This document shows, piece after piece, positions 248 through 36,165 of a DNA stretch of 36,235 nt. The notes beneath the pieces were generated by a model. It worked only from the letters and a program-made list of their open reading frames with translations. It made no database searches and was not told the DNA's origin. The position numbers and the translations under genes were made by a program. This DNA comes from Acidobacteriota bacterium (lineage in GTDB: Bacteria > Acidobacteriota > Thermoanaerobaculia > Multivoradales > UBA5704). The stretch lies in assembly GCA_040005235.1 (NCBI GenBank), contig JBDTZG010000055.1, positions 1 to 36,235 on the forward strand. Direction: 5' to 3'. How positions within the stretch are numbered: the stretch's first letter is position 1; every line of letters begins with the position of its first letter.

Positions 248-3200
248 CGCTGCACCCCCGCCCCGATCGCCGCGATTCCGGGTTGGGGTGGTGGCGAGTG
301 GACCACCAGGCACCACGCAGGCAAGGATCAACCGCAGGTCAAATGTGGGCGCGGGATGGCGGCTCTCCCTCGGCCAGCTCTATTCGCCCGACGTCAAGAC
401 GGACCTTCCTTTCAACGACACGAGATATTGGGTCTACGTCGGTCCGGATGCCTCAGAACACAAGTTCTTCCCGACCCTGCACGATGGCGATCCGGAGGAT
501 CCGGGCGACACGCTTAGTACTCAGAAGATCCTGTACAGCCGGGACGGCTCGTACCTGCGCCTGACGATCAATCTGGACGGCACGCACACCCTGGAGTTTC
601 CCGACGGCCAGATTCACACCTTCAATTCGAGCCGGCAACTGATCACGATCCGGGATCGTTTCGCGCCCGGGGGGATTCCCTCGAACTTCCTGGCCGTCGC
701 TTATACCCCGACGACCTGGACGCTCTCCGACTCTCGGGGGCGTACGCAGACACTCACGTTTTCGGAGCTGACCCAAGACACCCTGAAGATTCAGCGGCTC
801 GAGAAGGTGGAGATGACGGCGTTTCCGATCCCGGGCCAACCGCAGCCGCCGACCGCGACATGGACGTTTCAATACTCCATGGCGGTGATCCCCCGCGCCT
901 GCCCGGACTGCAACGACCTGCAATCGGACGACCCGCTGACGCCCCCAACTCTCACGGTCTACTTCCTGACCGGCATCACGCAGCCGGACGGCGGAGTTTG
1001 GTCGATGCCGTTGTCGGACTACGTGACGGTCAATCCTTCCGGCTTCAATGATCTGGTGGGGCGGATCAAAGGGCTGACGTTGCCGACCCTCGGCCGCCTG
1101 GAGTGGGACTACGGGTACTACAGATTCCCCAGCTCCTCGACCGAACGTCGCCCCTGGGCGCAGTCTTCGCGCGGCGTCGTGGTCCGGCGCAAGAAGACCG
1201 CTTCGGGCAACGTCGAAGGAGCCTGGACCTACTCACCCCATTTGATGAACGAAGGCACCCCTTCGGAATCGCTCTCGCAGGAGCTTGTGGTCACCGTGAC
1301 GACACCGCTGGGCGACAAGACGGAGAACTACTTTTCGGTCTTCGTTTCCGGGGGCATACCGGGTGTCTTCCCGAGCATTCTCGATTACGGCCGGCCGTTC
1401 ACGCCCAAAACACCCGACGGCCAGGGGAGATTTCTCTCGTCCCGGGTGTTTGACTGCCAACCCAACGGTACCGGCTGCGTGCCGGTCCGCTCCACCTGGG
1501 TACGGTACGAGCAGGATGCCTCGCCGGCCGTCGGCCTCGACGCCACCGGAGCAGGGGATTTGCTCGATCCTCGCGTCGCGCAGACCCGCACCGCGTTCGA
1601 GGACGACTGCCCGCCGGGATCTACCGGCTGCGACGTGATCACTCCCGTTCCACCGCCCACCTCCTTCTACTACTCGGACGAGGATTTCTCCAGCTTCGAC
1701 GGCCTGGGGCACTACCGGACGCGCAATCTACGCGGCAATTTTCCCGACATCACCTCGATCACCGAGACCACGAGCTACAACATGGCGCGCGGCATCTACG
1801 GCACCGCGGGTTTTTCGATGCTGCCGTCGAGCGACCCATGGCTGCTCGGCTTGTACCAGGACGTCACCCGTTCCAACAACTCGGGGGAGAACTCGACGGT
1901 TGAGAGCTGCTTCAACCCCTCGACCGGATTTCTCCGGCGCAAGAGGGTGAGGAAATTCGGCCGCACGACCGACGACGTTCTGGTGGTGTACACACCGACC
2001 GGAGTCGGTACGGGGGACGGCACGGTAGCGCGCGAAGATTGGTCGGGAGGCGACGGTGGGCACATCCCCATCGCCGAACTCTGCGGTCTGACGCCGCCGG
2101 GAGCCACCTACTCGCTCCAACACACTTACCAGCAGCGCCTGCTGGCTAAGTCGGAATATCTGAAGTCTGACAATCCACTGACTCTGTTCGAATTCGCGGC
2201 GGTCGATCGGGCCATCGATCCGCGAACCGGCCTGGTTGCCTCGGAGAGTGACATCGCGCAGTTACCGGCGACCTACGAGTACGACACCCTCGGGCGCCTG
2301 ACCTGGGTGCAGCCGGCCCAGGGGCATGGTGCCTGGACGGAGTATTCGTACGCCCGGGCGACCAGCCCAAGCTCACTCGCCAAGGTGACGATCAACCAGC
2401 ATGCCAATGGGGCGAAGGGCAACACGGTTCTCACCACCAGCAGCCTTTTCTTCGACTCGTTCGGACGCCTGATCAAAGAGCAGCGAAAGATGCCGGGAGC
2501 CGGCAATTTTTCGAACCGCGAGACCACCTACGACGCGATCGGCAATCGAGCCACCGTCTCGGAGTGGGAAGCGGGCGTCCCCTCGAACCGAACGCAATAC
2601 CTCGACTACGACCCGTTCGGCCGGCCGCGGACGATTCAACCGTCGGACGGAGCGGTGCATGCGGTGACGGTCACCCGCCGGGGCGTACGAGTGGTCACGA
2701 AACGATCGAAAGCGTGGGGCCCCTGCGGCACCGGCGGCGCCCTGCAGGAATGCTCGAGCGAGACCGTGGAATCCTACGACCAGATCGGGCGGCTGTTCCG
2801 GATCGACCAGCCGGTCGCCTGGCCCACCACCACGAATCCCGACCCGGCGCCGCTGCGGACCAGCTACGCCTACGACATCGGCGATCGCCTGAAAACAGTG
2901 AAGCAGTTTGACGCGGCGACCCAGGCGATCATTCAGCAGCGCGATTTCTCGTACGACAACCGGGGCTTCCTCACCTCGGAGAAGCACCCGGAGCTGGGTG
3001 GCGCGGGCAACGGCCTGGTGACCTATTCCGGCTACGACGCCCGGGGGCATGCCCACCAGAAGTTCGACGGAGTGTCGAACCTGACTTTCGAATACGACCG
3101 CGCCGAGCGGATGACCCGGGTGCGGGAGACCGGGACGTTCATCGGCTGCGGCACCACCACGCAGCCCCGCTGCTTGAAGGAGTACACTTTCGGCACGGCC

Positions 3201-5132
3201 AACTCCGGAAGCGACCTCCGACTAGGAAAAGTCCAAGTGGCGAAGCGCTACAATTATCCGAAGCTCGGCACGACCACCCACACGGTGGCGGTGGCGGAAA
3301 CCTACGTCTACGCCGGGAAAGACGGTCGCGCATCGAAGCGCGACACGCAGACCTTTTTCAACACCGCGCCCACCGAGGCGTTCACCCAGGGTTTCACCTA
3401 CGACGACTTGGGCAACACCGCGAGTCTCGCCTACCCGCAGTGCACCCACGCCGGCTGCGCTCCAGGAGCGGCCAATCCCAAAACCGTAGCGTTTGCCTAC
3501 ACCGAAGGCTTACTGACGGCCGTCCCGGGCTACGCCAGCTCGATCACCTACAACTCGAACCAGACGATCTCCCAAGTGGTACACGTCAACGGCATCACGG
3601 ACGTTATCGGCCTCGACCCGAACGCACAGCAACGGCCTGCCTCAATCCTCGCGAAAGTCACGACGACCTCGGCAAATCTCTGGAACGCGGGGACCTACCT
3701 CTACGACGGCGCCGGCAACGTCAAGTCGATCGGCGGCTCAGGCTTCGCCTACGACCCGGCGAGTCGCCTGACCACCGCCAACCTTTGGGACGGCACGGGC
3801 TCCACCGGCACGCCGCTCAAGACGCAAACTTACAGCTACGATCTGTTCGGCAATCTCCAAGCGATCGGTGGCCTCGGCGGGCGTAACACGCCGACCAGCT
3901 CGGCCACCAATCGGCTGAACGGCGCGGGCATGGCCTACGATGCCGCAGGCAACCAGACCGCCAACATTGGAGCGGTTCATGAGTACGACCCGTTCCACCT
4001 GATGTGGCACTTCCAGTCCGGGGCAGAAGACTGGCGCTACGTCTACACCGCGGAGGACGAGCGGATCTGGTCGTTCAAGACCGGAGGGACCTCCCGCTGG
4101 ACGCTCCGCGACCTCGGCAACAACGTGCTACGGGAATACACAAACAACGGTGGCGCCTGGAGCGTCACCGAAGATTTCATCCACCGCGGCGGCCAGCTAC
4201 TCGCGGCCGACACCACGGCCGGAGTGAGCCATTTCCACCTTGATCATCTGGGAACGCCGCGGTTGGTGACGAACCAGTCCGGCGTGAAGACGGCGTACCA
4301 CGTGTACTGGCCTTACGGCGAAGAGCTGACCTCGGCGACTCAGGACGCCGAGCGGATGAAGTTTACCGGGCATGAGCGGGATCTGAACGGATCGGCGGGG
4401 ACTGGAGATGACCTGGACTACATGCATGCGCGGTTTTGCTCGCCGGTTACAGGGCGGTTTTCGACCACAGATCCGTCACCAAGAAGTATCCGAATGAGTA
4501 TGCCTCAGAGCTGGAATCGATATAGCTACGTGATGGGGAATCCTTACAAGTATGTCGATCCGGGCGGGGACCAGTGGTTCAAGATCGAGGGGAAGTGGAC
4601 GTTTATCCCCGACACCAGCGTGATCGAGTCCGTAACGGCAAAGTCTAAGGGAAAGGAAGAGAGCAAATCTGAGGTTGTTCAGGGACGGGAGCAGTTGGTG
4701 GGTTTTGATGGCGGCCAACTAACCTTCTATCGTAAGGATGGTAGTCAGCAATCCTTCGACGCAGTCTCAGGACGAGGTGGTCGTACCAATCCCAAATTGC
4801 AGTCTGTTAGCGGCGTGGGCCCGATTCCTGAAGGTCGTTATTCCTTCAATACCGCAAATGTCCAAAGCTTCTCGGGCCTCAGCGCATTCCAGAAGGCGGC
4901 CGCCTACCTTAAACGTGGGACTTGGCCCGGCGGTACAATCGCCTGGGGCGATCAGCGAGTTGAACTGAACGCCGATTCTTCGACCAACACTTACGGGCGC
5001 GGCGGATTCTTCATCCATGGCGGCTTTACTCCAGGTTCTGCCGGATGTATTGATCTCTGTGACCGCGATCGGGACTTCTTCAGCGCAGTTGGGGGTTCCG
5101 GAGAGGTAACTGTGGAGGTGGACTACCCATGA
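84..5132 (+). CDS. Rhs/YD-repeat polymorphic toxin with C-terminal Tlde1/DUF2778 (L,D-transpeptidase-like) domain; 5' end disrupted, genuine Rhs sequence begins ~297
   Basis: Many YD repeats (YDTLGRL, YDAIGNR, YDQIGRL, YDNRGFL, YDAAGNQ). Rhs core DHLGTPRLVT...FTGHERD...DYMHAR...GRFSTTDP...NRYSYVMGNPYKYVDPGG, with the cleavage motif at ~4545-4568. C-terminal GPIPEGRY and RGGFFIHGGFTPGSAGCIDL. The first ~70 codons are only the antisense of the inverted N-terminus. Confidence 0.9.
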   Translation: MSRRLPLNALTESTSPTAKILSGAKPLATFGCSWALAAAEEAASKAERRSPRNFIAAPPPRSPRFRVGVVASGPPGTTQARINRRSNVGAGWRLSLGQLYSPDVKTDLPFNDTRYWVYVGPDASEHKFFPTLHDGDPEDPGDTLSTQKILYSRDGSYLRLTINLDGTHTLEFPDGQIHTFNSSRQLITIRDRFAPGGIPSNFLAVAYTPTTWTLSDSRGRTQTLTFSELTQDTLKIQRLEKVEMTAFPIPGQPQPPTATWTFQYSMAVIPRACPDCNDLQSDDPLTPPTLTVYFLTGITQPDGGVWSMPLSDYVTVNPSGFNDLVGRIKGLTLPTLGRLEWDYGYYRFPSSSTERRPWAQSSRGVVVRRKKTASGNVEGAWTYSPHLMNEGTPSESLSQELVVTVTTPLGDKTENYFSVFVSGGIPGVFPSILDYGRPFTPKTPDGQGRFLSSRVFDCQPNGTGCVPVRSTWVRYEQDASPAVGLDATGAGDLLDPRVAQTRTAFEDDCPPGSTGCDVITPVPPPTSFYYSDEDFSSFDGLGHYRTRNLRGNFPDITSITETTSYNMARGIYGTAGFSMLPSSDPWLLGLYQDVTRSNNSGENSTVESCFNPSTGFLRRKRVRKFGRTTDDVLVVYTPTGVGTGDGTVAREDWSGGDGGHIPIAELCGLTPPGATYSLQHTYQQRLLAKSEYLKSDNPLTLFEFAAVDRAIDPRTGLVASESDIAQLPATYEYDTLGRLTWVQPAQGHGAWTEYSYARATSPSSLAKVTINQHANGAKGNTVLTTSSLFFDSFGRLIKEQRKMPGAGNFSNRETTYDAIGNRATVSEWEAGVPSNRTQYLDYDPFGRPRTIQPSDGAVHAVTVTRRGVRVVTKRSKAWGPCGTGGALQECSSETVESYDQIGRLFRIDQPVAWPTTTNPDPAPLRTSYAYDIGDRLKTVKQFDAATQAIIQQRDFSYDNRGFLTSEKHPELGGAGNGLVTYSGYDARGHAHQKFDGVSNLTFEYDRAERMTRVRETGTFIGCGTTTQPRCLKEYTFGTANSGSDLRLGKVQVAKRYNYPKLGTTTHTVAVAETYVYAGKDGRASKRDTQTFFNTAPTEAFTQGFTYDDLGNTASLAYPQCTHAGCAPGAANPKTVAFAYTEGLLTAVPGYASSITYNSNQTISQVVHVNGITDVIGLDPNAQQRPASILAKVTTTSANLWNAGTYLYDGAGNVKSIGGSGFAYDPASRLTTANLWDGTGSTGTPLKTQTYSYDLFGNLQAIGGLGGRNTPTSSATNRLNGAGMAYDAAGNQTANIGAVHEYDPFHLMWHFQSGAEDWRYVYTAEDERIWSFKTGGTSRWTLRDLGNNVLREYTNNGGAWSVTEDFIHRGGQLLAADTTAGVSHFHLDHLGTPRLVTNQSGVKTAYHVYWPYGEELTSATQDAERMKFTGHERDLNGSAGTGDDLDYMHARFCSPVTGRFSTTDPSPRSIRMSMPQSWNRYSYVMGNPYKYVDPGGDQWFKIEGKWTFIPDTSVIESVTAKSKGKEESKSEVVQGREQLVGFDGGQLTFYRKDGSQQSFDAVSGRGGRTNPKLQSVSGVGPIPEGRYSFNTANVQSFSGLSAFQKAAAYLKRGTWPGGTIAWGDQRVELNADSSTNTYGRGGFFIHGGFTPGSAGCIDLCDRDRDFFSAVGGSGEVTVEVDYP

Positions 5133-5544: not shown

Positions 5545-5760
5545 GTGCATTTCGACCGCTCTCGGTCTGGGTTGGAGACACTTGCTTCTTCGCAAAGGAG
5601 CCGAGTGTCGATGGTTCGCCGCGCTCAGGACTTTCCAACGCATGAGACCGCTGAAGCAGCTCAGTTCGGCGACAAAGTATCGGCGGAGAAGTCTGACCTG
5701 ACACCGGAGCAAGCAGAATCGGTTCTCGACGAACTCTTGAAGCCGAGGCCTCGGCAATGA
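5545..5760 (+). pseudogene. Probable remnant 3' end of an orphan toxin tip
   Basis: Short open frame (…THETAEAAQFGDKV…LLKPRPRQ*) with no good start. Its stop overlaps the next ATG (ATGA), the same coupling as the toxin-immunity pair upstream. Confidence 0.4.
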
Positions 5761-5867
5761 CGCGTCTAGCCTTTCCTCTCTTAATATTCGCTATCGTCGC
5801 AGCGCAAAGCTGTGTTTCTCCTTACGCTGTGACAACCGATGGTCGGCCGGCTGCGCCATCGGTGCAA

Positions 5868-6117
5868 GAGCCCGGTGGACCTGACGCATCGATAGGTCGG
5901 TCCGACCTCGCCACTGCCCGTACAGCTCGCAGTAGCGGCTGTAGCGGTAGCCCCGAGGCTCCCGCTGCCGGTACTCCTCCCACAGCAGGCTCAGCGTCAC
6001 CCCTTTGCGTTTGAACTCGGTATGCACCTGTGCCCAGTCCACCCACGGCCGCTCCGACGCCGGCACTCCCTCTCTCGGCGGGTACAGTCGGCGCTCGAGC
6101 TCCTCGTCGCTCAGACA
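5868..6117 (-). mobile_element. istA: Internal fragment of an IS21-family transposase
   Basis: LSDEELERRLYPP…DWAQVHTEFKRKGVTLSLLWEEYR…GYRYSRYCELY…LSMRQVHRA is the conserved IstA N-terminal region. No start, DDE domain, istB or terminal IRs are present. Confidence 0.88.
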
Positions 6118-6211
6118 TGACCCCAGTTGGAAGGGCCCCGTCGGCCCCAGGCCGTTTCGTGGACGGCGATCTGGTGTTGTCGATCGACATCGACCAATTG
6201 GAGCTGTCGAG
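6118..6211. repeat. Copy 2 of structured repeat: terminal IR enclosing three hairpins
   Basis: CCAGTTGG (6123-6130) pairs with CCAAYTGG (6194-6201). Internal GGGCC-ccgtc-GGCCC, GCCGT-ttcgtgg-ACGGC and the palindrome TGTCGATCGACA. Confidence 0.8.
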
Positions 6212-6548
6212 TATCCTCCCCTAGCAAGGAATATCGGTCTTTCTGGCACGGTCGAGCTGGAGGTCAAAGTCTCAAACGGATTGGTGCTCGGGACTCGGCT
6301 GCTCTACAAGCTTGAACATCGATCCTATGACTCCAGCAAGCGTCCAACATTCGTTCTGGACCTTGCCGCTCATGTGACCGTTCGTGCGCCTTTGAATCGT
6401 TGGTGACGGCCTGGTTCCGGAGTGGGAAGTGGTCGAAGGCTCGGATCGCTCATGCGCTCGCCATTACCCTACATAACGCGGCCGGCGCGCGAGAGTTCCC
6501 TCGCCTTGCTTTGACTCCCCGCGGCCGGCGACAGGGACGCGTTGGACC

Positions 6549-7052
6549 TTACCCCTCCGTGGCGCGGCGCAGGAGGCGGCCGGCATCGCGCAGGGCGGTG
6601 CTGCCTGCGGCTTCGAGGACCAGCGCAAGGCTCGCGGGCGATCGGGTGAGATAGGCCGCCACATGGAGCGCCTCTTCGAGCGGCTGGTCGAAATGCCGGA
6701 GATACCCCTCAATTTCGCCGTTCGGGCCGCGGAGCGCGAAGCCGGCGGACGAGTCGTCGGGATCGAGGCGGAGGAGAGAGTCGCGGCCGGTCGCCGGCAG
6801 GACCGCCGCGGCGAGCAATGCGAGCTCGCGACGCTCGAACCGCGCGACCGGGTGGCCGCCTCGTTCCGCGCCGAGAGCGGCGTGGAAGACTCCCCAGCTT
6901 TCGATGCCTTGGTGGTTCAGCCCCTCGACGCGCCAAGGGCCGGACACCTCGGCTTCGGCGGAGCTTACCGGTTCGTCCAGTCGGTCCAGCTCGGAGAGGA
7001 AGGATTCGTCGAAGGCGTTTGCCGGTTGGACTTGGTGGATTTGGCGGCTCAT
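6549..7052 (-). CDS. Hypothetical protein, 167 aa
   Basis: ATG preceded by GGAG, host-like codon usage, globular composition, and a near-consensus promoter upstream. Confidence 0.8.
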   Translation of the reverse strand: MSRQIHQVQPANAFDESFLSELDRLDEPVSSAEAEVSGPWRVEGLNHQGIESWGVFHAALGAERGGHPVARFERRELALLAAAVLPATGRDSLLRLDPDDSSAGFALRGPNGEIEGYLRHFDQPLEEALHVAAYLTRSPASLALVLEAAGSTALRDAGRLLRRATEG

Positions 7053-30319: not shown

Positions 30320-30739
30320 TTACCCTTCAGCGCGAACCAGCGTCGCGATCCGCGCGAGCGCCTGACGGTCGATCTCGGCGAAGCGGCCGAAGATCAGCTC
30401 TTCCGTCTCCGCCAGCACCTTCGCCCCCGCGGCATGTCGTTCCCGGCCGGTGGCGGTGAGAGCGGCGCGCACGGAGCGCCGGTCCTTCGGATCGCCCAAA
30501 CGCTCGACCAGCTTCTCCTCTTCGAGTCGGTCGATCAGCTGGGTCATGTTCGAGCGCACGCAGCTGCACTTCTCCGCCAAGGTTCCCAGTGGAACCGGAT
30601 CGCCCGCCTCGACCAGCCGCGAAAGCACGTTCAGCTTCGCCAGCGAAAGTCCGACCGCATCGAGAGCCGTCTCGATCCGGTTCTCCACTTCCCGGGCCGT
30701 CGAAAGCAGCAGGTGCGCAGCAGGGGGAGAATTGTTCAT
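30320..30739 (-). CDS. MarR family transcriptional regulator (upstream of nemA)
   Basis: GLSLAKLNVL…CSCVRSNMTQLIDRLEEEKLVER…DRR. ATG 30739 lies 6 nt after a TATACT -10. Confidence 0.9.
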   Translation of the reverse strand: MNNSPPAAHLLLSTAREVENRIETALDAVGLSLAKLNVLSRLVEAGDPVPLGTLAEKCSCVRSNMTQLIDRLEEEKLVERLGDPKDRRSVRAALTATGRERHAAGAKVLAETEELIFGRFAEIDRQALARIATLVRAEG

Positions 30740-30956
30740 GGCTGTAGTATACAGAATAAGAGGGGTTTGTACATGGTGGCCCCGGGGGCGCAGTACAACT
30801 AGGCACGGAGACACTTCGATTCCTAGCGGGTGGGACAAGCGACCAGCCTATGTGCCATCTCAAGGTGGTCTAAACCTACGCAAGGCGCTTTAGCGGCCCC
30901 ATTAGCTGCAATGAGCAGCCGACCAAAGCGAAAGGTCCTCACCTTGCCGGGGACAC

Positions 30957-31391
30957 TTACTCATGGCCTGCCTCAGGGTCAGAAGGCGGCGGGGTATACC
31001 TATATGACGATAGTTTAGGGCTAACAATGTCACAGCTGAAATCAGCCGCGATCTGCTTTCCCCCTTGAGCATAGCAAAGTTCTCTAAAGCTTCTTTCGGC
31101 CCAATCGCTTAATTCTTTTCGGTAGCGAGCCGTGCTTCGGCGAGACTCCTCTGTTCTTTGCTTGAAAAGCATAAATTCGACCCGCAAATCCTCTCGTTTA
31201 TCACGCTCCTTATCAAGGTCACTGCTGAGGTTTTGCAGGTACATTCCCAAGGCTCCGTACGACAGAGTTGCTAGTGCCACGAACATCGCTGCAAACTCAA
31301 GGTAGATCCTATAATCTCTTTTCGGAGTACCTGCACCTTCCGCCTTAGGAGGCTGAGCTGGCACCGGACTTTGGCTTTCTATTTCGGTCAA
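30957..31391 (-). CDS. Hypothetical single-TM coiled-coil protein (lower-GC cassette)
   Basis: TTG start with AGGGG SD, TM FAAMFVALATLSYGALGMYL, charged helical segment, two Cys. Confidence 0.7.
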   Translation of the reverse strand: MTEIESQSPVPAQPPKAEGAGTPKRDYRIYLEFAAMFVALATLSYGALGMYLQNLSSDLDKERDKREDLRVEFMLFKQRTEESRRSTARYRKELSDWAERSFRELCYAQGGKQIAADFSCDIVSPKLSSYRYTPPPSDPEAGHE

Positions 31392-31411
31392 TGCTCGGCC
31401 CCTATAGAAGG

Positions 31412-32539
31412 TTACCTCTGCGGGTTTCGCGAAAGTTCCCGCAAATTTCGGATGACGCTACTCTCGATTACGATCATGGAAGGGATATCCTGGCGACTTC
31501 CTTCCTGCACTTCTTTTCTCTCAATAAAGTACCAATTGTCAGGCGAAGTCACAACGCTAAGGAAATTCGCGGTCGTGGGTAACTGAATTGAGCCAATAAC
31601 ATTGCCGCGCCCGGACGGATCGATTTTGTGAAGCTTCCAAGCGGTCCCCTGGTTTGACTCTGGAGAGCGAGTCAAGAGATAAAGAAATCCATCCTGCGAG
31701 AATAAGCCAGCAGGAGTGTCGTACCCCTCAAGCTCTCGGAAAAGTTGAGCCACCGTGCCCGCGCCATCCATCGACGTCTGAACAGGCAACGTCTTGTTCA
31801 AGCTCACCCGAAGAGCATCCAAGGGAAAAGGCTCTTTCGATCCCGCATCAACCCTAAAGAGCGACGGCTTGTAATTGTACCTCATGGCAACATAAAAAAA
31901 TGAGTCGCCAACAGAGGTTATAAATGGAAACCCAATGACATAATAGTCTGCATCTTCGAACTCAGAGAAGAAAGTTACATTGCTGGGCTTTTCCAGAGGC
32001 GACCGAAAAAAGCCGATCGTGAAGTCGGAACTTCCATTGCGGAAGACTGGCCCATAGCCAAATACTGACTTTCCATTTGACGTCCACTGATACAGGGACG
32101 CTATGCCTCCGGTGGCCTCACTAGCGCTCAATGCGACCTCACCTTTGGGTAACAGCATTGAGTCGAGACGCTCCGTCCGGGCGCCGGGCAGTTTGAGAAA
32201 GAATTCGCCGCCAACCTTATTAACAGCGAGTGGCTGAAGGCGTTCTAGATTCCCGAATTTCTCTCCTGAAACCCTCTTGGTCATACCATCGGGAGCAATG
32301 AGGATTAGCTCTTTTTTAATTGGATCAACAAGCAGGATTGACTTAAATTTATCGGCCCATTCCGCTGAGCTTATCCACACCGGCGATTCTTTGAGGCGGA
32401 TCCTCTTCCATGGAGCACCAGTTCCCGAAGCGAAGATAGCTTGAGATCCTGTCGTGCAGGCGAAGATCATGGCGCAGGCCAGAAGGGCGACCACTCTCTG
32501 AATGCTACGCGGGGCCGAAGTACCGTTATCCATCGTCAT
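31412..32539 (-). CDS. Exported (possibly lipid-anchored) beta-propeller-like protein, 375 aa
   Basis: ATG 32539 with AAGGGG SD, signal VVALLACAMIFAC, and repeated beta-blade-like motifs (ILLVDPIKKELILIAPDG, GLFSQDGFLYLLTR, WKLHKIDP). Confidence 0.75.
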   Translation of the reverse strand: MTMDNGTSAPRSIQRVVALLACAMIFACTTGSQAIFASGTGAPWKRIRLKESPVWISSAEWADKFKSILLVDPIKKELILIAPDGMTKRVSGEKFGNLERLQPLAVNKVGGEFFLKLPGARTERLDSMLLPKGEVALSASEATGGIASLYQWTSNGKSVFGYGPVFRNGSSDFTIGFFRSPLEKPSNVTFFSEFEDADYYVIGFPFITSVGDSFFYVAMRYNYKPSLFRVDAGSKEPFPLDALRVSLNKTLPVQTSMDGAGTVAQLFRELEGYDTPAGLFSQDGFLYLLTRSPESNQGTAWKLHKIDPSGRGNVIGSIQLPTTANFLSVVTSPDNWYFIERKEVQEGSRQDIPSMIVIESSVIRNLRELSRNPQR

Positions 32540-32549
32540 ATGCCCCTTG

Positions 32550-32747
32550 TCAGATCGAGCCAGTACAAATGCCGCGGCCTCTAAGGCAGTCGTTGGTTGA
32601 AAAGTCGTGCTTTCCGAAGTCACTACCTCCACTTATGCATGACGAGGCGCTAATGGCTCGGCCAAGCTCGTTGGGACATCGGCCTGGAGACGCCGGTGCA
32701 ACGGTTAGAAAAGCACATGCTATGACTGCCGCTCCCAGCTTGACCAC
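32550..32747 (-). CDS. Small secreted Cys-rich peptide, 65 aa
   Basis: GGAGGT-6nt-GTG start: MVKLGAAVIACAFLTVAPASPG-RCPNELGRAISASSCISGGSDFGKHDFSTNDCLRGRGICTGSI. The stop is 10 nt before the next ATG. An in-frame alternative ATG exists at 32852. Confidence 0.65.
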   Translation of the reverse strand: MVKLGAAVIACAFLTVAPASPGRCPNELGRAISASSCISGGSDFGKHDFSTNDCLRGRGICTGSI

Positions 32748-33069
32748 AGAAGCACCTCCCGTGCCATAGGCACGAACTGCTAAGTTAGACGTTTGCACTA
32801 TCGTACCAGTTGCTTCAGCCGCGGTCAACCGAAGCGATGCAGAGATGCGCATGGAAGCACCTTTTGCACCTGAGCATAAATAAGAGTGCGCTAGAACCCG
32901 GGTACCGGGACAAAGCCTGGGAAGGGTTCTGGTAGAGACGCGACAATCAAGGCGAATTTGTGCCACTAGTTGGGTCTTGAGGCGAAGGATATGGTCAAGA
33001 GGTAGGGGGCGGCATGTGGATTTTGAGCGAGATCAAGGGCGGCTCATTATGAGATGCACCGTACTTCGC

Positions 33070-34677
33070 TCAGCCGACCCGTGGACCCGCCGCCTTCACC
33101 TCGGGGGAGACGCCGCTCGCGTACTTCTCGAAGTTGGTGACGAACATCTGCGCCAGCTCGGTCGCCTTGGCGTCGTAGCGGGCGACATCGGCCCAGGTCT
33201 CGCGCGGGCGGAGCACCTCGTCCGGCACGCCTTCGACCTGCTGGGGCACGCTCAGGCCGAAGACCGGATCGATGCGGAACGCCCCCGCGTCGAGCTCGCC
33301 GCTGAGCGCGGCCTGGAGCAGGCGACGGGTGAGCGAGAGCTTCATCCGCTTTCCGGAGCCGTAGGGGCCGCCGGTCCAGCCGGTGTTGACCAGCCAGACC
33401 TTGGCGCCTGCAGCAAGCCGGTCGCCGAGCATTTTGGCGTAGACCCCCGGGTGGAGCGGCAGGAACGGCGCCCCGAAGCAGGCCGAGAAGGTCGCTTTGG
33501 GCTCGGTGACCCCCCGTTCGGTCCCCGCGACCTTCGCGGTATAGCCGGAGAGGAAGTGGTACATCGCCTGGTCGTTCGTCAAGCGCGCGATCGGCGGCAG
33601 CACCCCGAACGCATCGCAGGTGAGGAACACGACGTTTCTCGGATGCCCCGCGGTGCCTTGCGGGTCGACGTTCGACAGGTGGGTGATCGGATAGCTGCCG
33701 CGGGTGTTTTCGGTCTTGCCGTCGTCGTCGAGATCGAGCGTTCGCAGCTCGCGGTCGTAGGTGACGTTTTCGAGGATCGTGCCGAACCGGCGGGTGGTCG
33801 AGTAGATCTCGGGCTCGCTCTCAGGCGAGAGGCGGATCATCTTGGCGTAGCAGCCCCCCTCGATGTTGAACACGCCGTCGGGTCCCCAGCCGTGCTCGTC
33901 GTCGCCGATCAGCGTCCGTTCCGGGTCGGCCGAGAGGGTCGTCTTGCCGGTGCCCGAGAGGCCGAAGAAGAGCGCCACGTCTTCCTTGGTGGCGCCGTAG
34001 TTGGCGCTGCAGTGCATCGACAGGACGTCGTTTTTCGGCAGCACGTAGTTCATCACGGAGAAGATGCTCTTCTTGATCTCGCCGGCGTAGGAGGTGCCGC
34101 CAATCAGAACGGTCTTCCGGTCGAGGTCGAGCAGGACGAAGGCGCCGGACCGGGTGCCGTCTCGCGCGGGCTCCGCTTCGAGGCCGCATACGTCGAGCAC
34201 CAGGAAATCGGGCTCGAACGCTTCGAGCGCCGCGCCGTCCTCTTCGCGCACGAACATGTTGCGCGCGAACAGGCTATGCCAAGCCTTCTCGGTGATCACC
34301 CGGACCTTGATCCGGTAGCGCGGATCGCAGCCGGCATAGCCGTCGAAGACGAACAGGTCCTTGCCCGCCACGTGCTCGCGCGCCCGCTCGTAGAGCGACT
34401 CGAACTTTTCCGGGTCAAACGGCTTGTTGACGTTGCCCCACCAGATGTCGGCTTCGCTCGCGGCGTTCCTGACCACGAACTTGTCCTCGGGCGAGCGGCC
34501 GGTGAACGAACCCGTGTCGCAAAGAAGCGGCCCGTCGGCGGCCAGAAACGCCTCGTCACGGCGCACCGCCTGCTCACAGAGAGCGGCGGGAGAGAGGTTC
34601 CAGTAAGCGGCTTTAGCTCGCTCCAGGCCGTGGCGGTCGAGACCGAAACGGCTGACGAAAGGTCCTTCGCTTAGCAT
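33070..34677 (-). CDS. pckA: Phosphoenolpyruvate carboxykinase (ATP)
   Basis: [51 protein letters not shown]. Confidence 0.98.
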
Positions 34678-35544: not shown

Positions 35545-36165
35545 CTAGTCCGAATCGGCGGGATCGAAGGGCTCGGCATCGACCGGCCGCTTCGTATAGC
35601 CGCGCAGGAACATCCGTTCGGTGAGCGCGGCCATGCAGCGCCGGGCCACTTTCCGCACGCTGGACGGGTGGTACCCCATCTGCACCGCGACCTCGCCGGA
35701 ATCGAGCCCCAGGCGATAGCGCAGGCGCAACAAGCGGCGGCAGCGCGGGGGAAGGCCCTCGATCAGGTTGTCGAGGTCCCAGCGGACCTCGGCCTTCTCT
35801 TGGGGCGCCGCTTCGGGCTCCGAAAGCAGCTCCAGAATGACCGCATCGACCGAGTTGTAGAGGTTCGTGTGCTTCTTGCGCCAATATACGACGCAGCGAT
35901 TGCGCAAAGTGACCAGCAGCCAAGCCTCGGGATCCTGGATCTCGCTCCATTTCTGGAGCGTCGAGACCAGCGCTTCCTGCACCAAGTCCTCCGCGTCGTG
36001 CGCGGGCACGCGATAGCGCGCAAGGATCTGCTTCAGCCGCGGCCGGAGCCGTTGCAGGAGATCCTCGATGGACTCCCGGACCACGCCGAGGTCGGCGGCG
36101 GGAGGATCGGAAGCGGCTGGGTCGGATGCAGGTCGATCGCCAGCGGGTTGATTGGAGGCTGCCAT
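35545..36165 (-). CDS. ECF-type sigma-70 family RNA polymerase sigma factor
   Basis: Region 2 DAEDLVQEAL…AWL…RNRC and region 4 LPPRCRRLLRLRY…EVAVQMG…SVRK. Confidence 0.9.
   Translation of the reverse strand: MAASNQPAGDRPASDPAASDPPAADLGVVRESIEDLLQRLRPRLKQILARYRVPAHDAEDLVQEALVSTLQKWSEIQDPEAWLLVTLRNRCVVYWRKKHTNLYNSVDAVILELLSEPEAAPQEKAEVRWDLDNLIEGLPPRCRRLLRLRYRLGLDSGEVAVQMGYHPSSVRKVARRCMAALTERMFLRGYTKRPVDAEPFDPADSD

Follow-up and report, generated by a model that had tools for sequence, protein, structure and literature searches.

A candidate three-gene peptide-and-partner module inserted between marR and pckA in an Acidobacteriota genome

The stretch of DNA analysed here (the window, 36,235 nucleotides) holds three genes of lower GC between marR and pckA, encoding a small secreted cysteine peptide, a propeller-like protein and a membrane protein. 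What do these three genes do together, and do they belong to a known system? The first-pass annotation, made from the sequence alone, had proposed a horizontally acquired extracytoplasmic peptide-partner module that could not be assigned to a described system. Our searches agree with the second part, since none of the three proteins matched Pfam, NCBIfam or PADLOC (0 PADLOC families for P0001, P0002 and P0003), and the full text reached by our literature searches contained no paper on the module. As the three genes travel together within a group of soil bacteria and belong to no described system, we regard the cassette as a new candidate peptide-and-partner module. At about even confidence, we suggest that it encodes a cognate periplasmic peptide-propeller binding pair that would be tethered by a stalk protein and may serve in sensing. 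The micropeptide gene is of the kind that long-ORF calls can hide, and it is tied to a dedicated partner protein.

Insertion between marR and pckA

The AT-richness of this segment, noted before, is evident in the GC profile: GC is about 0.50 in the cassette of ~2.3 kb (0.48-0.57 across 30800-33050) and 0.64-0.72 in both flanks. By blastn against same-genus loci, homology ends at ~30754 and starts again at ~33070. The marR-pckA spacing is 60, 150 and 359 bp in three same-genus genomes versus 2.3 kb in the window. The closest homologue of the 375-aa propeller protein is only 38% identical, while for pckA the identity within the genus is 89-96%, and the GC of the module is below that of its flanks in 22/22 copies. 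The near-empty site in congeners, the divergence of the 375-aa protein relative to pckA and the consistently low GC support horizontal acquisition of the cassette, as was proposed at first. The borders of the insertion show neither flanking direct repeats nor a target duplication. Genes for mobility, transport or known modifying enzymes are absent from the cassette, in agreement with the first reading, and tblastn of the propeller protein (P0002) against plasmid and phage libraries gave no match.

The three genes were read from the sequence as co-oriented on the minus strand, with gaps of 10 and 20 nt and a Shine-Dalgarno (SD) sequence each, as described earlier (Table 1).

Table 1. Features of the inserted cassette, with positions in the window
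Feature	Position	Strand	Evidence
Inserted low-GC cassette, marR start to pckA stop	30755..33069	.	blastn vs same-genus loci, GC profile
144-aa bitopic membrane protein gene	30957-31391	-	TTG start, AGGGG SD, profile matches
375-aa secreted six-bladed beta-propeller gene	31412-32539	-	AF2 model, VIA-align, profile match
65-aa precursor gene	32550-32747	-	GTG start, SD, profile match, synonymous-change pattern
Conserved C-terminal disulfide-loop codons (C54-x6-C61)	32565..32588	-	two invariant alignment columns, 19 fused proteins
Promoter-like site TTGACC-17-TACGAT with TG	32800..32828	-	~50 nt upstream of peptide start

The promoter consensus scan gave 3 sites versus 1.6 expected in shuffles, and the sequence of the listed site is weak evidence at most for a promoter of the peptide gene.

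Products of the three genes

Translation confirmed the signal-peptide precursor that had been described as hidden in a longer ORF call: the peptide gene is nested in a 138-aa ORF (32550-32966) and has the SD sequence GGGAGG at 32755-32760, 7 nt upstream of its start. The product begins with a hydrophobic stretch (signal peptide, roughly residues 1-19), and its mature part of 46 aa carries four cysteines, spaced C24-x12-C37-x16-C54-x6-C61. The mature peptide is near-neutral (5 K/R vs 4 D/E, hand count on the translation) and contains no Trp. It matches a profile of 17 homologous peptides with E 8.4e-10. In the peptide alignment (A2), C54 and C61 are the two invariant columns, and conservation in the family is limited to the C-terminal C-x6/7-C loop, the rest of the sequence being variable. 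The number of mature cysteines is odd (3) in 6/17 peptides, which the binding-pair reading leaves unexplained. The last 13 codons, compared with a same-genus copy, keep 12 residues with 8 synonymous changes and 1 replacement; judged from this codon pattern, the peptide C-terminus is under selection.

The 375-aa gene starts at ATG, with the motif AAGGGG 3 nt ahead of the first ATG and 9 nt ahead of the second one. The protein contains a signal peptide at about 1-30 and a propeller at 41-371, and the earlier description as beta-propeller-like holds. The AF2 model (pLDDT 85.6, pTM 0.83) has 24 strands in six four-stranded blades, with blade 6 closed by the N-terminal strand 44-48, and an extra helix inserted between blades 4 and 5. 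According to VIA-align, the nearest solved structure is 3s9j, the DUF4221 propeller BVU_1028 of Bacteroides vulgatus (Z 17.4, 286 residues aligned), with NHL domains at Z 16.5-16.8 and six-bladed propellers in general at Z 14-17. PAL (3fw0, Z 14.2) and virginiamycin B lyase are among these neighbours, and identity to the structural neighbours is 4-13%. Thus the six blades of the NHL-type superfamily are present in the model, and no sequence match reaches a curated threshold. P0002 itself had 0 Pfam families at E<=1, and matches among 22 family members were few and mostly weak: DUF5128 in 1/22 (2.6e-5), SGL in 2/22 (0.0026) and NHL in 1/22 (0.13). The family profile searched against PDB detected the TRIM3 NHL domain (E 1.6e-6). 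From these matches, the family appears to be a distant relative of NHL/DUF5128/SGL at best. Atlas look-alikes of the window propeller are Bacteroidota DUF5128 and TolB_like propellers.

The conserved residues W55, S58, D72, R291, W301, E340 and Q350 map to D-A/B-C loops, or to the ends of strands, in blades 5, 6 and 1, which by the topology of the model would place them on the top face. No invariant His triad or other metal site was detected in the propeller family, and the window protein has Phe at a conserved His position and Lys for Gly of the E-K-G motif. Family members contain either no Cys or one N-terminal and one C-terminal Cys, a pattern that fits a closed propeller.

The third gene has its SD sequence 7 nt upstream of the start and encodes a protein with a 33-aa N-tail, a TM segment at 34-52, a charged helical stalk and an end with C106-x13-C120. 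The stalk segment is 53% charged and without Pro or Gly. Of the proposed TM coiled-coil protein, the TM segment and the charged stalk stand, and the coiled coil is less clear: the heptad signal is weak in the window (reached by 33% of shuffles) and strong in five homologues. By profile, a stalk gene was detected beside 9/22 sources scanned, with two further look-alikes recognized by eye (L030 and L018), so its presence is optional. A signalling role of the stalk protein is disfavoured by its cytoplasmic tail, which is short and shows no conservation. The third protein has an i-spanin-like layout, with no phage context and an empty P0002 tblastn against phages. Lipoprotein and spanin readings were dropped because most peptides are without a lipobox Cys (for instance L023, L024, L015).

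Pairing and distribution across relatives

The first-pass annotation expected small signal-peptide Cys-rich ORFs upstream of propeller homologues, with the Cys spacing conserved and the sequence variable. We examined 25 propeller copies and detected a small signal-peptide Cys ORF directly upstream in 19, with the Cys loop conserved and the sequence otherwise variable. The other six copies comprise two with a larger upstream secreted protein ending in a C-x6-C loop, one fusion, two contig ends and one tandem second copy. The peptide-propeller gap (17 measured) is -26 to +199 nt, mostly 9-45 nt. A profile search of five genomes placed 9/9 peptide matches (8 of them rows that the profile was trained on) and 4/4 stalk matches beside propeller genes, with no orphans.

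Natural fusions, with the order signal peptide, loop, linker and propeller, were found in 19 of the best 150 representatives of the 1632 clusters (50% identity) that make up the propeller family in public data. The loop motif is in the first 130 residues in these 19/150 and elsewhere in 0/150. In the AF2 model of one fused protein (P0069), a 17-residue hairpin (strands 29-33 and 38-45, block pLDDT 93 and 80) is followed by a linker at ~50 pLDDT and a propeller above 90. These fusions are a Rosetta stone for the link between micropeptide and partner and, together with the upstream Cys ORFs, support the peptide-partner idea. Complex prediction of the mature peptide with the propeller from separate alignments scored 0.00, 0.59 and 0.01 in runs made without controls. 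Cys counts gave an inconsistent pattern with respect to an intermolecular peptide-propeller or peptide-stalk disulfide.

Since the arrangement recurs in relatives and the codon pattern is kept, it is more than chance. That the small ORF is spurious, leaving only the propeller and the membrane protein as real, is very improbable. The ORF is indeed short, has a GTG start and lies inside a longer ORF call, but it has a well-placed SD sequence, equivalent signal-peptide ORFs in most propeller copies, two invariant cysteines in its family and a mostly synonymous set of changes at its C-terminus, and its loop motif also occurs inside the fused proteins.

The distribution of the module is lineage-restricted and patchy. 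The propeller family was found in 13/401 sampled genomes of the phylum, and 18/41 relatives carry the module, with up to 4 copies in one genome (G011). A word-indexed homologue search gave two relatives for P0002 and two for a 100-row profile. A search for related loci returned none with P0002 and one with P0004. A Pfam scan covering 21 loci, with 64 ORFs in their flanks, detected no recurrent partner beyond the module. LRR/FNIP proteins adjoin three loci and TIR adjoins one; transposase, group II intron, TIR and STAND/LRR genes are neighbours of some loci, and a DsbA-like gene is present in L027. TIR links comprise two observed cases, neither of them in the window: P0142 is a TIR-TM-propeller protein, and in locus L012 a TIR-TM protein takes the place of the third gene. 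The PADLOC matches are confined to TIR-type models, and these cover the TIR parts of P0142 and the L012 neighbour.

This distribution bears on another explanation, a toxin-immunity-release cassette in which the peptide is a bacteriocin-like toxin stabilised by disulfides, the propeller its immunity protein and the membrane protein an aid to release; if so, it would be a new bacteriocin type. The horizontal insertion at low GC, the patchy spread with several paralogous cognate pairs per genome, the hypervariable peptides and the mobile, TIR and STAND/LRR genes near some loci are compatible with it, and the three-gene layout resembles colicin operons. However, the fusions would join the supposed toxin to the supposed immunity protein, the cassette offers no way across the outer membrane, the window mature peptide is near-neutral, no known toxin or immunity family was matched, and P0002 was found on no plasmid or phage. 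We consider this explanation unlikely.

Proposed working and comparison with known systems

According to the binding-pair reading, the cassette would be a self-contained, horizontally moving, extracytoplasmic module with all three products exported or membrane-inserted through the Sec route. The peptide would shed its signal peptide, leaving a C-terminal hairpin held by the C-x6-C disulfide, and this hairpin would bind its own cognate six-bladed NHL-like propeller, probably docking on the conserved top face of blades 5, 6 and 1. The stalk protein would be anchored in the inner membrane, its helical stalk and the small end closed by a disulfide reaching into the periplasm, and may hold or position the complex at the membrane. 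From hairpin binding and stalk tethering it would follow that the pair is a dedicated ligand (or small subunit) with its receptor (or large subunit), not an enzyme pathway. A cytoplasmic TIR domain, present on the propeller or on the third gene's product in some variants, suggests that the complex reports a periplasmic event across the membrane, and the rare TIR fusions hint at a sensing function. Were the pair a ligand with its receptor, diderm soil bacteria would have a new means of sensing or marking their periplasm.

No enzyme signature was detected in Pfam, NCBIfam or PADLOC, which we count in favour of the binding pair, while the conserved Asp/Glu/His/Arg set could be a catalytic site and counts against it. 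A catalytic site would fit RiPP-like maturation, in which the propeller is a periplasmic enzyme that cross-links, cleaves or cyclises the hairpin of a Sec-exported precursor; enzyme and substrate would then define a new Sec-dependent class of peptide natural products. D72, E340, R291 and the mostly conserved His could form its active site, peptide-acting six-bladed propellers (PAL and virginiamycin B lyase) are among the structural neighbours, and the peptide body is hypervariable around one short conserved motif. Fused and split architectures both exist, of which the fused proteins would be self-processing forms, and plant BURP-domain cyclases likewise occur either joined to their core peptides or separate from them. 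A precursor-like peptide is present, and the propeller could be an enzyme of unrecognised type, but no known modifying-enzyme family was matched, there is no invariant metal site (with the Phe and Lys replacements of the window protein), no recognised protease or exporter was found in or near the module, and the precursor has a signal peptide instead of a leader. Overall, RiPP-like maturation is rather doubtful, and we return to the binding pair.

Among known systems, the closest to the propeller are six-bladed propellers of the NHL/DUF4221/DUF5128 type, including the NHL domains of Brat and TRIM proteins, which share six four-stranded blades closed by an N-terminal strand. Unlike them, the window protein has no Pfam model, is 4-13% identical, has the helix insert between blades 4 and 5 and is accompanied by a dedicated upstream peptide gene.

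The first-pass annotation also noted a likeness to pairs of a small peptide gene and a six-bladed propeller gene in Bacteroidota, which we take, going by annotation, to be the NVEALA (PF14055) pairs. In both, a gene for a small peptide accompanies one for a secreted six-bladed propeller, the propellers being of the same broad fold class, and the resemblance holds at the fold level because the solved structure closest to the window protein is a DUF4221 propeller from Bacteroides. It does not extend to the peptide: the ORF that contains it gave no NVEALA Pfam match, its conserved element is a C-x6-C loop at the C-terminus, preceded by a Sec signal peptide, and the module here adds a third stalk gene and natural fusions. 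The whole genome gave no PF14055 match, a weak negative because control genomes were equally empty. We know of no function for the NVEALA pairs, and the literature within reach of our full-text search held no paper on them.

Methylamine dehydrogenase and quinohemoprotein amine dehydrogenase are likewise periplasmic and consist of a large propeller subunit and a small one rich in disulfides, with adjacent genes, and accessory membrane or thioredoxin-like genes occur in some loci (compare the DsbA-like gene). In contrast, the propeller here has six blades and not seven, there were no Pfam matches to heavy or light chains and no radical SAM or mau-type accessory genes, and the absence of Trp from the window peptide makes a tryptophan-derived quinone cofactor impossible.

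The layout of the module is analogous to TolA-TolB with a bound peptide epitope. In TolA-TolB, a bitopic inner-membrane protein, whose periplasmic part is a long helical region ending in a small C-terminal domain, works with a periplasmic six-bladed propeller capturing a short peptide. There is no sequence relation, and the module is accessory, inserted and multi-copy, while TolA-TolB is a core envelope system.

A further analogy is to Toll with Spaetzle, a TIR-domain receptor with an endogenous disulfide-rich ligand. P0142 likewise joins a binding domain outside the cytoplasm, through a single TM helix, to a TIR domain inside it, and the candidate ligand is an endogenous secreted disulfide peptide; the ectodomain, though, is a propeller and not LRR, and TIR was seen in the two cases outside the window. 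We think it quite unlikely, below the toxin and RiPP-like explanations, that the module is a bacterial counterpart of such signalling. The disulfide-looped peptide would then be a dedicated ligand or guarded bait of the propeller receptor, its loss, cleavage or displacement in the periplasm (for instance by a protein of a competitor or phage) would be reported across the inner membrane via the stalk, and a cytoplasmic TIR effector would carry the report in some variants. The many paralogous, fast-evolving pairs would in that case constitute a repertoire for periplasmic surveillance or kin recognition.

Insertion of the cassette between marR and pckA

The first-pass annotation had described a low-GC cassette of three genes with SD sequences and gaps of 10 and 20 nt, and this description was found accurate in GC profile, coordinates and Cys spacing. 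The GC fraction is 0.48-0.57 across ~30800-33050 of the window, vs 0.64-0.72 outside. Pfam, NCBIfam and PADLOC gave no match for any of the three cassette proteins. Five same-genus genomes carry the adjoining pckA at 89-96% identity. In three of them homology stops just beyond the marR start codon and restarts at the pckA stop codon, with marR-side to pckA-side spacings of 359 bp (G002), 150 bp (G006) and 60 bp (G001) vs 2.3 kb in the window; the fourth genome reaches a contig end and the marR side of the fifth did not align. The 375-aa protein shares 38% identity with its closest relative anywhere, and its gene is present as a single copy in the window's genome. No mobility genes, as already noted in that annotation, and no flanking repeats were found at the cassette. 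Judged from these alignments and the GC contrast, the cassette is an insertion, horizontally acquired as had been proposed.

The longest ORF call for marR is probably too long: homology with the three congeners runs out shortly beyond an ATG near 30739, and a start there would yield a MarR of ~139 aa beginning right at the insertion border. An ORF at the end of the window, outside the insertion and in a segment aligning with the congeners, resembles by eye an ECF-type sigma factor.

The flanks of 21 other loci carry unrelated housekeeping genes, with few exceptions (LRR/FNIP-repeat proteins at three loci, a group II intron reverse transcriptase, an IS4-type transposase and a truncated AAA_21 ATPase gene). 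Module GC is below that of the flanks in 22/22 copies, by 0.003-0.156. Because the flanks are unrelated and richer in GC, the module acts like a small accessory unit inserted at varied sites.

Coordinates of the cassette genes, their neighbours and features of related loci
Feature	Sequence	Position	Strand	Remarks
marR, longest ORF call	window	30320-30838	minus	172 aa, TTG start; MarR, E 1.3e-10; cassette genes lie upstream of it
Stalk gene	window	30957-31391	minus	144 residues; TTG start 20 nt after propeller gene, AGGGG 7 nt upstream
Propeller gene	window	31412-32539	minus	375 residues, N-terminal signal sequence; 10 nt past peptide stop
Peptide gene	window	32550-32747	minus	65 residues; GTG start, GGGAGG 7 nt upstream
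pckA	window	33070-34677		PEPCK_ATP, E 3e-218; minus-strand cassette genes lie downstream of it
ECF-like ORF	window	35545-36165	minus
LRR/FNIP-repeat protein	L011	5045-6586		adjoins module
LRR/FNIP-repeat protein	L027	717-2234		adjoins module
LRR/FNIP-repeat protein	L016	4208-7009		adjoins module; weak STAND-type NTPase model matches, N-terminal TM segments
IS4-type DDE transposase	L030 (Thermoanaerobaculaceae MAG)	3645-5057		just upstream of module
Truncated AAA_21 (AbiEii-like) ATPase ORF	L030	7608-7997		just downstream of module
Group II intron reverse transcriptase	L019	5414-7315		between two modules
Split propeller gene	L025 (G019:C2)	2908-4082		two frames; profile matches 2908-3459 and 3174-4082
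TIR-TM-ectodomain gene	L012 (G011:C6)	5606-6700	minus	between two propeller genes
Third gene	L020	2334-2888	minus	single Cys
Third gene	L028	2495-2989	minus	single Cys

The micropeptide and its pairing with the propeller

The peptide gene is nested inside a 138-aa ORF call, and its product has a hydrophobic signal-like N-terminus followed by C24-x12-C37-x16-C54-x6-C61. We examined the DNA around 24 further propeller copies (25 with the window's, starts picked by rule), following the earlier suggestion that homologues should be preceded by small signal-peptide Cys ORFs with conserved Cys spacing amid variable sequence. In 19 of the 25 copies the propeller is preceded by a small signal-peptide ORF of 65-93 aa that has three or more mature Cys. 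Two copies have a larger secreted protein (296 or 313 aa) with the same C-x6-C loop at its end, one (L018) carries peptide and propeller in a single frame, two lie at a contig end and were not assessable, and one, the second gene of a tandem pair, is without its own peptide. Where the peptide-propeller gap was measured (17 small ORFs), it ranges from -26 to +199 nt, mostly 9-45 nt. Alignment of 17 peptides leaves just two invariant columns, the Cys pair of a C-x6/7-C loop, and all else is variable. The loop, usually C-x-G-x-[P/G]-x-x-C, is preceded by a hydrophobic/aromatic residue plus Asp/Asn and lies 0-14 residues from the C-terminus (0-10 in 16/17 peptides).

Of the last 13 residues, 12 are common to the window peptide and that of the same-genus locus L022, while the remainder of the gene is unalignable. 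These 13 codons hold eight synonymous changes and one replacement, the mark of selection on a translated product. The peptide profile gave nine matches in five whole genomes (eight training rows and one new), all directly upstream of propeller genes, and no orphan peptide genes were found there. The peptide gene is real and a constant companion of the propeller; the alternative of a spurious small ORF is very unlikely, close to negligible.

Natural fusions join the two partners. Among the 150 best family representatives, the loop motif lies within the first 130 residues in 19 and elsewhere in none, these being 19 of the 29 proteins of at least 410 aa. Their order is signal peptide, hairpin motif, a linker of ~50-70 residues, often with one more Cys, and propeller, the motif lying ~10 residues or less from the predicted cleavage site. 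In the AF2 model of one such fusion, P0069 (100-row alignment, pLDDT 85.8), the two hairpin strands reach ~93 (29-33) and ~80 (38-45), against ~50 for the linker and >90 for the propeller; a confident short hairpin beside a disordered linker suggests that the hairpin is packed on the propeller. A toxin-immunity-release cassette would fit the mobility, patchiness and hypervariability, but fusions in 13% of representatives suit it poorly and an export route is lacking, so we regard it as rather improbable.

In six of the 17 peptides (L012, L022, L023, L014, L016, L015) the mature part contains three Cys, and the odd one is ~16-23 residues ahead of the loop; in the fused proteins a third Cys lies ~17-24 residues beyond it. 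This odd Cys may represent a free thiol or take part in an intermolecular bond.

The propeller family and its membrane partners

The AF2 model of the 375-aa protein (22 homologues, pLDDT 85.6, pTM 0.83) has six four-stranded blades, with blade 6 closed by the N-terminal strand and a helical insert between blades 4 and 5. Foldseek returned generic six- and seven-bladed propellers only (TM 0.4-0.5). VIA-align against 48,161 chains placed first the Bacteroides DUF4221 protein 3s9j (Z 17.4, 286 residues, 10% identity), followed by NHL domains (Z 16.5-16.8); the family profile matches the TRIM3 NHL domain (E 1.6e-6), and DUF5128 is touched by 1/22 family members. The protein, earlier called beta-propeller-like, is by its modelled fold a six-bladed propeller, and the family it belongs to is large and unannotated. 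Its members either lack Cys, as the window protein does, or have exactly one N-terminal and one C-terminal, which fits a disulfide across the propeller closure.

The profile search of 1.84 billion representatives detected 1632 proteins at E<=1e-3 and 748 at E<=1e-30. In the phylum survey, 13 of 401 evenly drawn genomes had a match at E<=1e-10, all from the window's order or one further family of its class, and the propeller family is lineage-restricted. Close relatives, the window's own genome included, have matches at E<=1e-3 in 18/41 genomes, up to four per genome. One homologue sits in a MAG labelled Thermoanaerobaculaceae, and the commonest phylum of the nearest Atlas cluster is Acidobacteriota. 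Either a frameshift or misassembly could account for the split propeller gene at L025, where the peptide and stalk genes seem intact.

The third product, the stalk protein, has a 33-residue tail, one TM helix (34-52), a 51-residue segment (53% charged, without Pro or Gly) and C106-x13-C120. Heptad periodicity, expected of the coiled coil claimed for it, is not significant in the window protein (reached by 33% of shuffles) but is so in five homologues (at most 4%). The stalk profile detected the gene directly downstream of the propeller in 9/22 sources scanned, and its matches adjoin propeller genes in 4/4 cases in five genomes. The sole conserved part is C-x13-C followed by an aromatic or Thr-rich turn. 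Look-alikes with TM helix, helical segment and C-x13-C occur at L030 and, upstream of the propeller, at L018.

Other proteins take the stalk's place: a TIR-TM-ectodomain protein at L012 (TIR_2, E 1e-28), TM-anchored proteins of 165-185 aa without family at L020 and L028, and at L027 a DsbA-like protein ~300 nt downstream. P0142 (525 aa) is a single protein with a cytoplasmic TIR domain, one TM helix and a propeller, a receptor-like layout not seen in others among the 150 listed representatives. The second L012 propeller has 855 aa with an N-terminal TPR region, preceded by the 296-aa secreted Cys-rich protein with the C-x6-C loop at its end. The L020 and L028 third-gene proteins, from the two most distant loci, are mutually alike by eye and may be a different membrane partner.

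Proposed mechanism and relation to known systems

All three products face the periplasm. We propose, with middling confidence, that peptide and propeller form a cognate binding pair, given their strict one-to-one pairing, the short hairpin conserved in a free-running peptide and the repeated hairpin-propeller fusion. The conserved polar/aromatic propeller residues (W55, S58, D72, R291, W301, E340, Q350) map to the D-A and B-C loops, or to the strand ends next to them, in blades 5, 6 and 1, and by propeller topology would form one patch on the top face, the usual ligand site of propellers. Most family members have His where the window propeller has Phe. A RiPP-like enzyme-substrate pair would likewise account for the variable core and for the occurrence of both fused and split forms, but an enzyme signature and an invariant metal site are both absent and the conserved His is missing in the window copy, making it unlikely. 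In the binding-pair mechanism the stalk protein would be a membrane tether, and the two TIR cases (L012, P0142) suggest that the propeller can be the outer part of a transmembrane reporter.

Taken together, the initial observation is confirmed and its interpretation supported: the module is a real, horizontally inserted three-gene extracytoplasmic unit centred on a micropeptide with its partner propeller; it is widespread within a single acidobacterial lineage and matches no described system. No description of it was found in the portions of the literature consulted. By fold the propeller is distantly NHL/DUF4221-like and six-bladed, yet it falls short of the threshold of every curated family. 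In Bacteroidota annotations NVEALA peptides are paired with six-bladed propellers, and we take this to be the nearest parallel, but the window peptide is not an NVEALA protein (Pfam; genome search), and no paper on the name was found in the full-text literature. Methylamine-dehydrogenase-type enzymes likewise combine a propeller with a Cys-rich small subunit; this identity fails on domains, blade number and cofactor residues. The likenesses to Tol, spanin and Toll/Spaetzle systems are architectural only.
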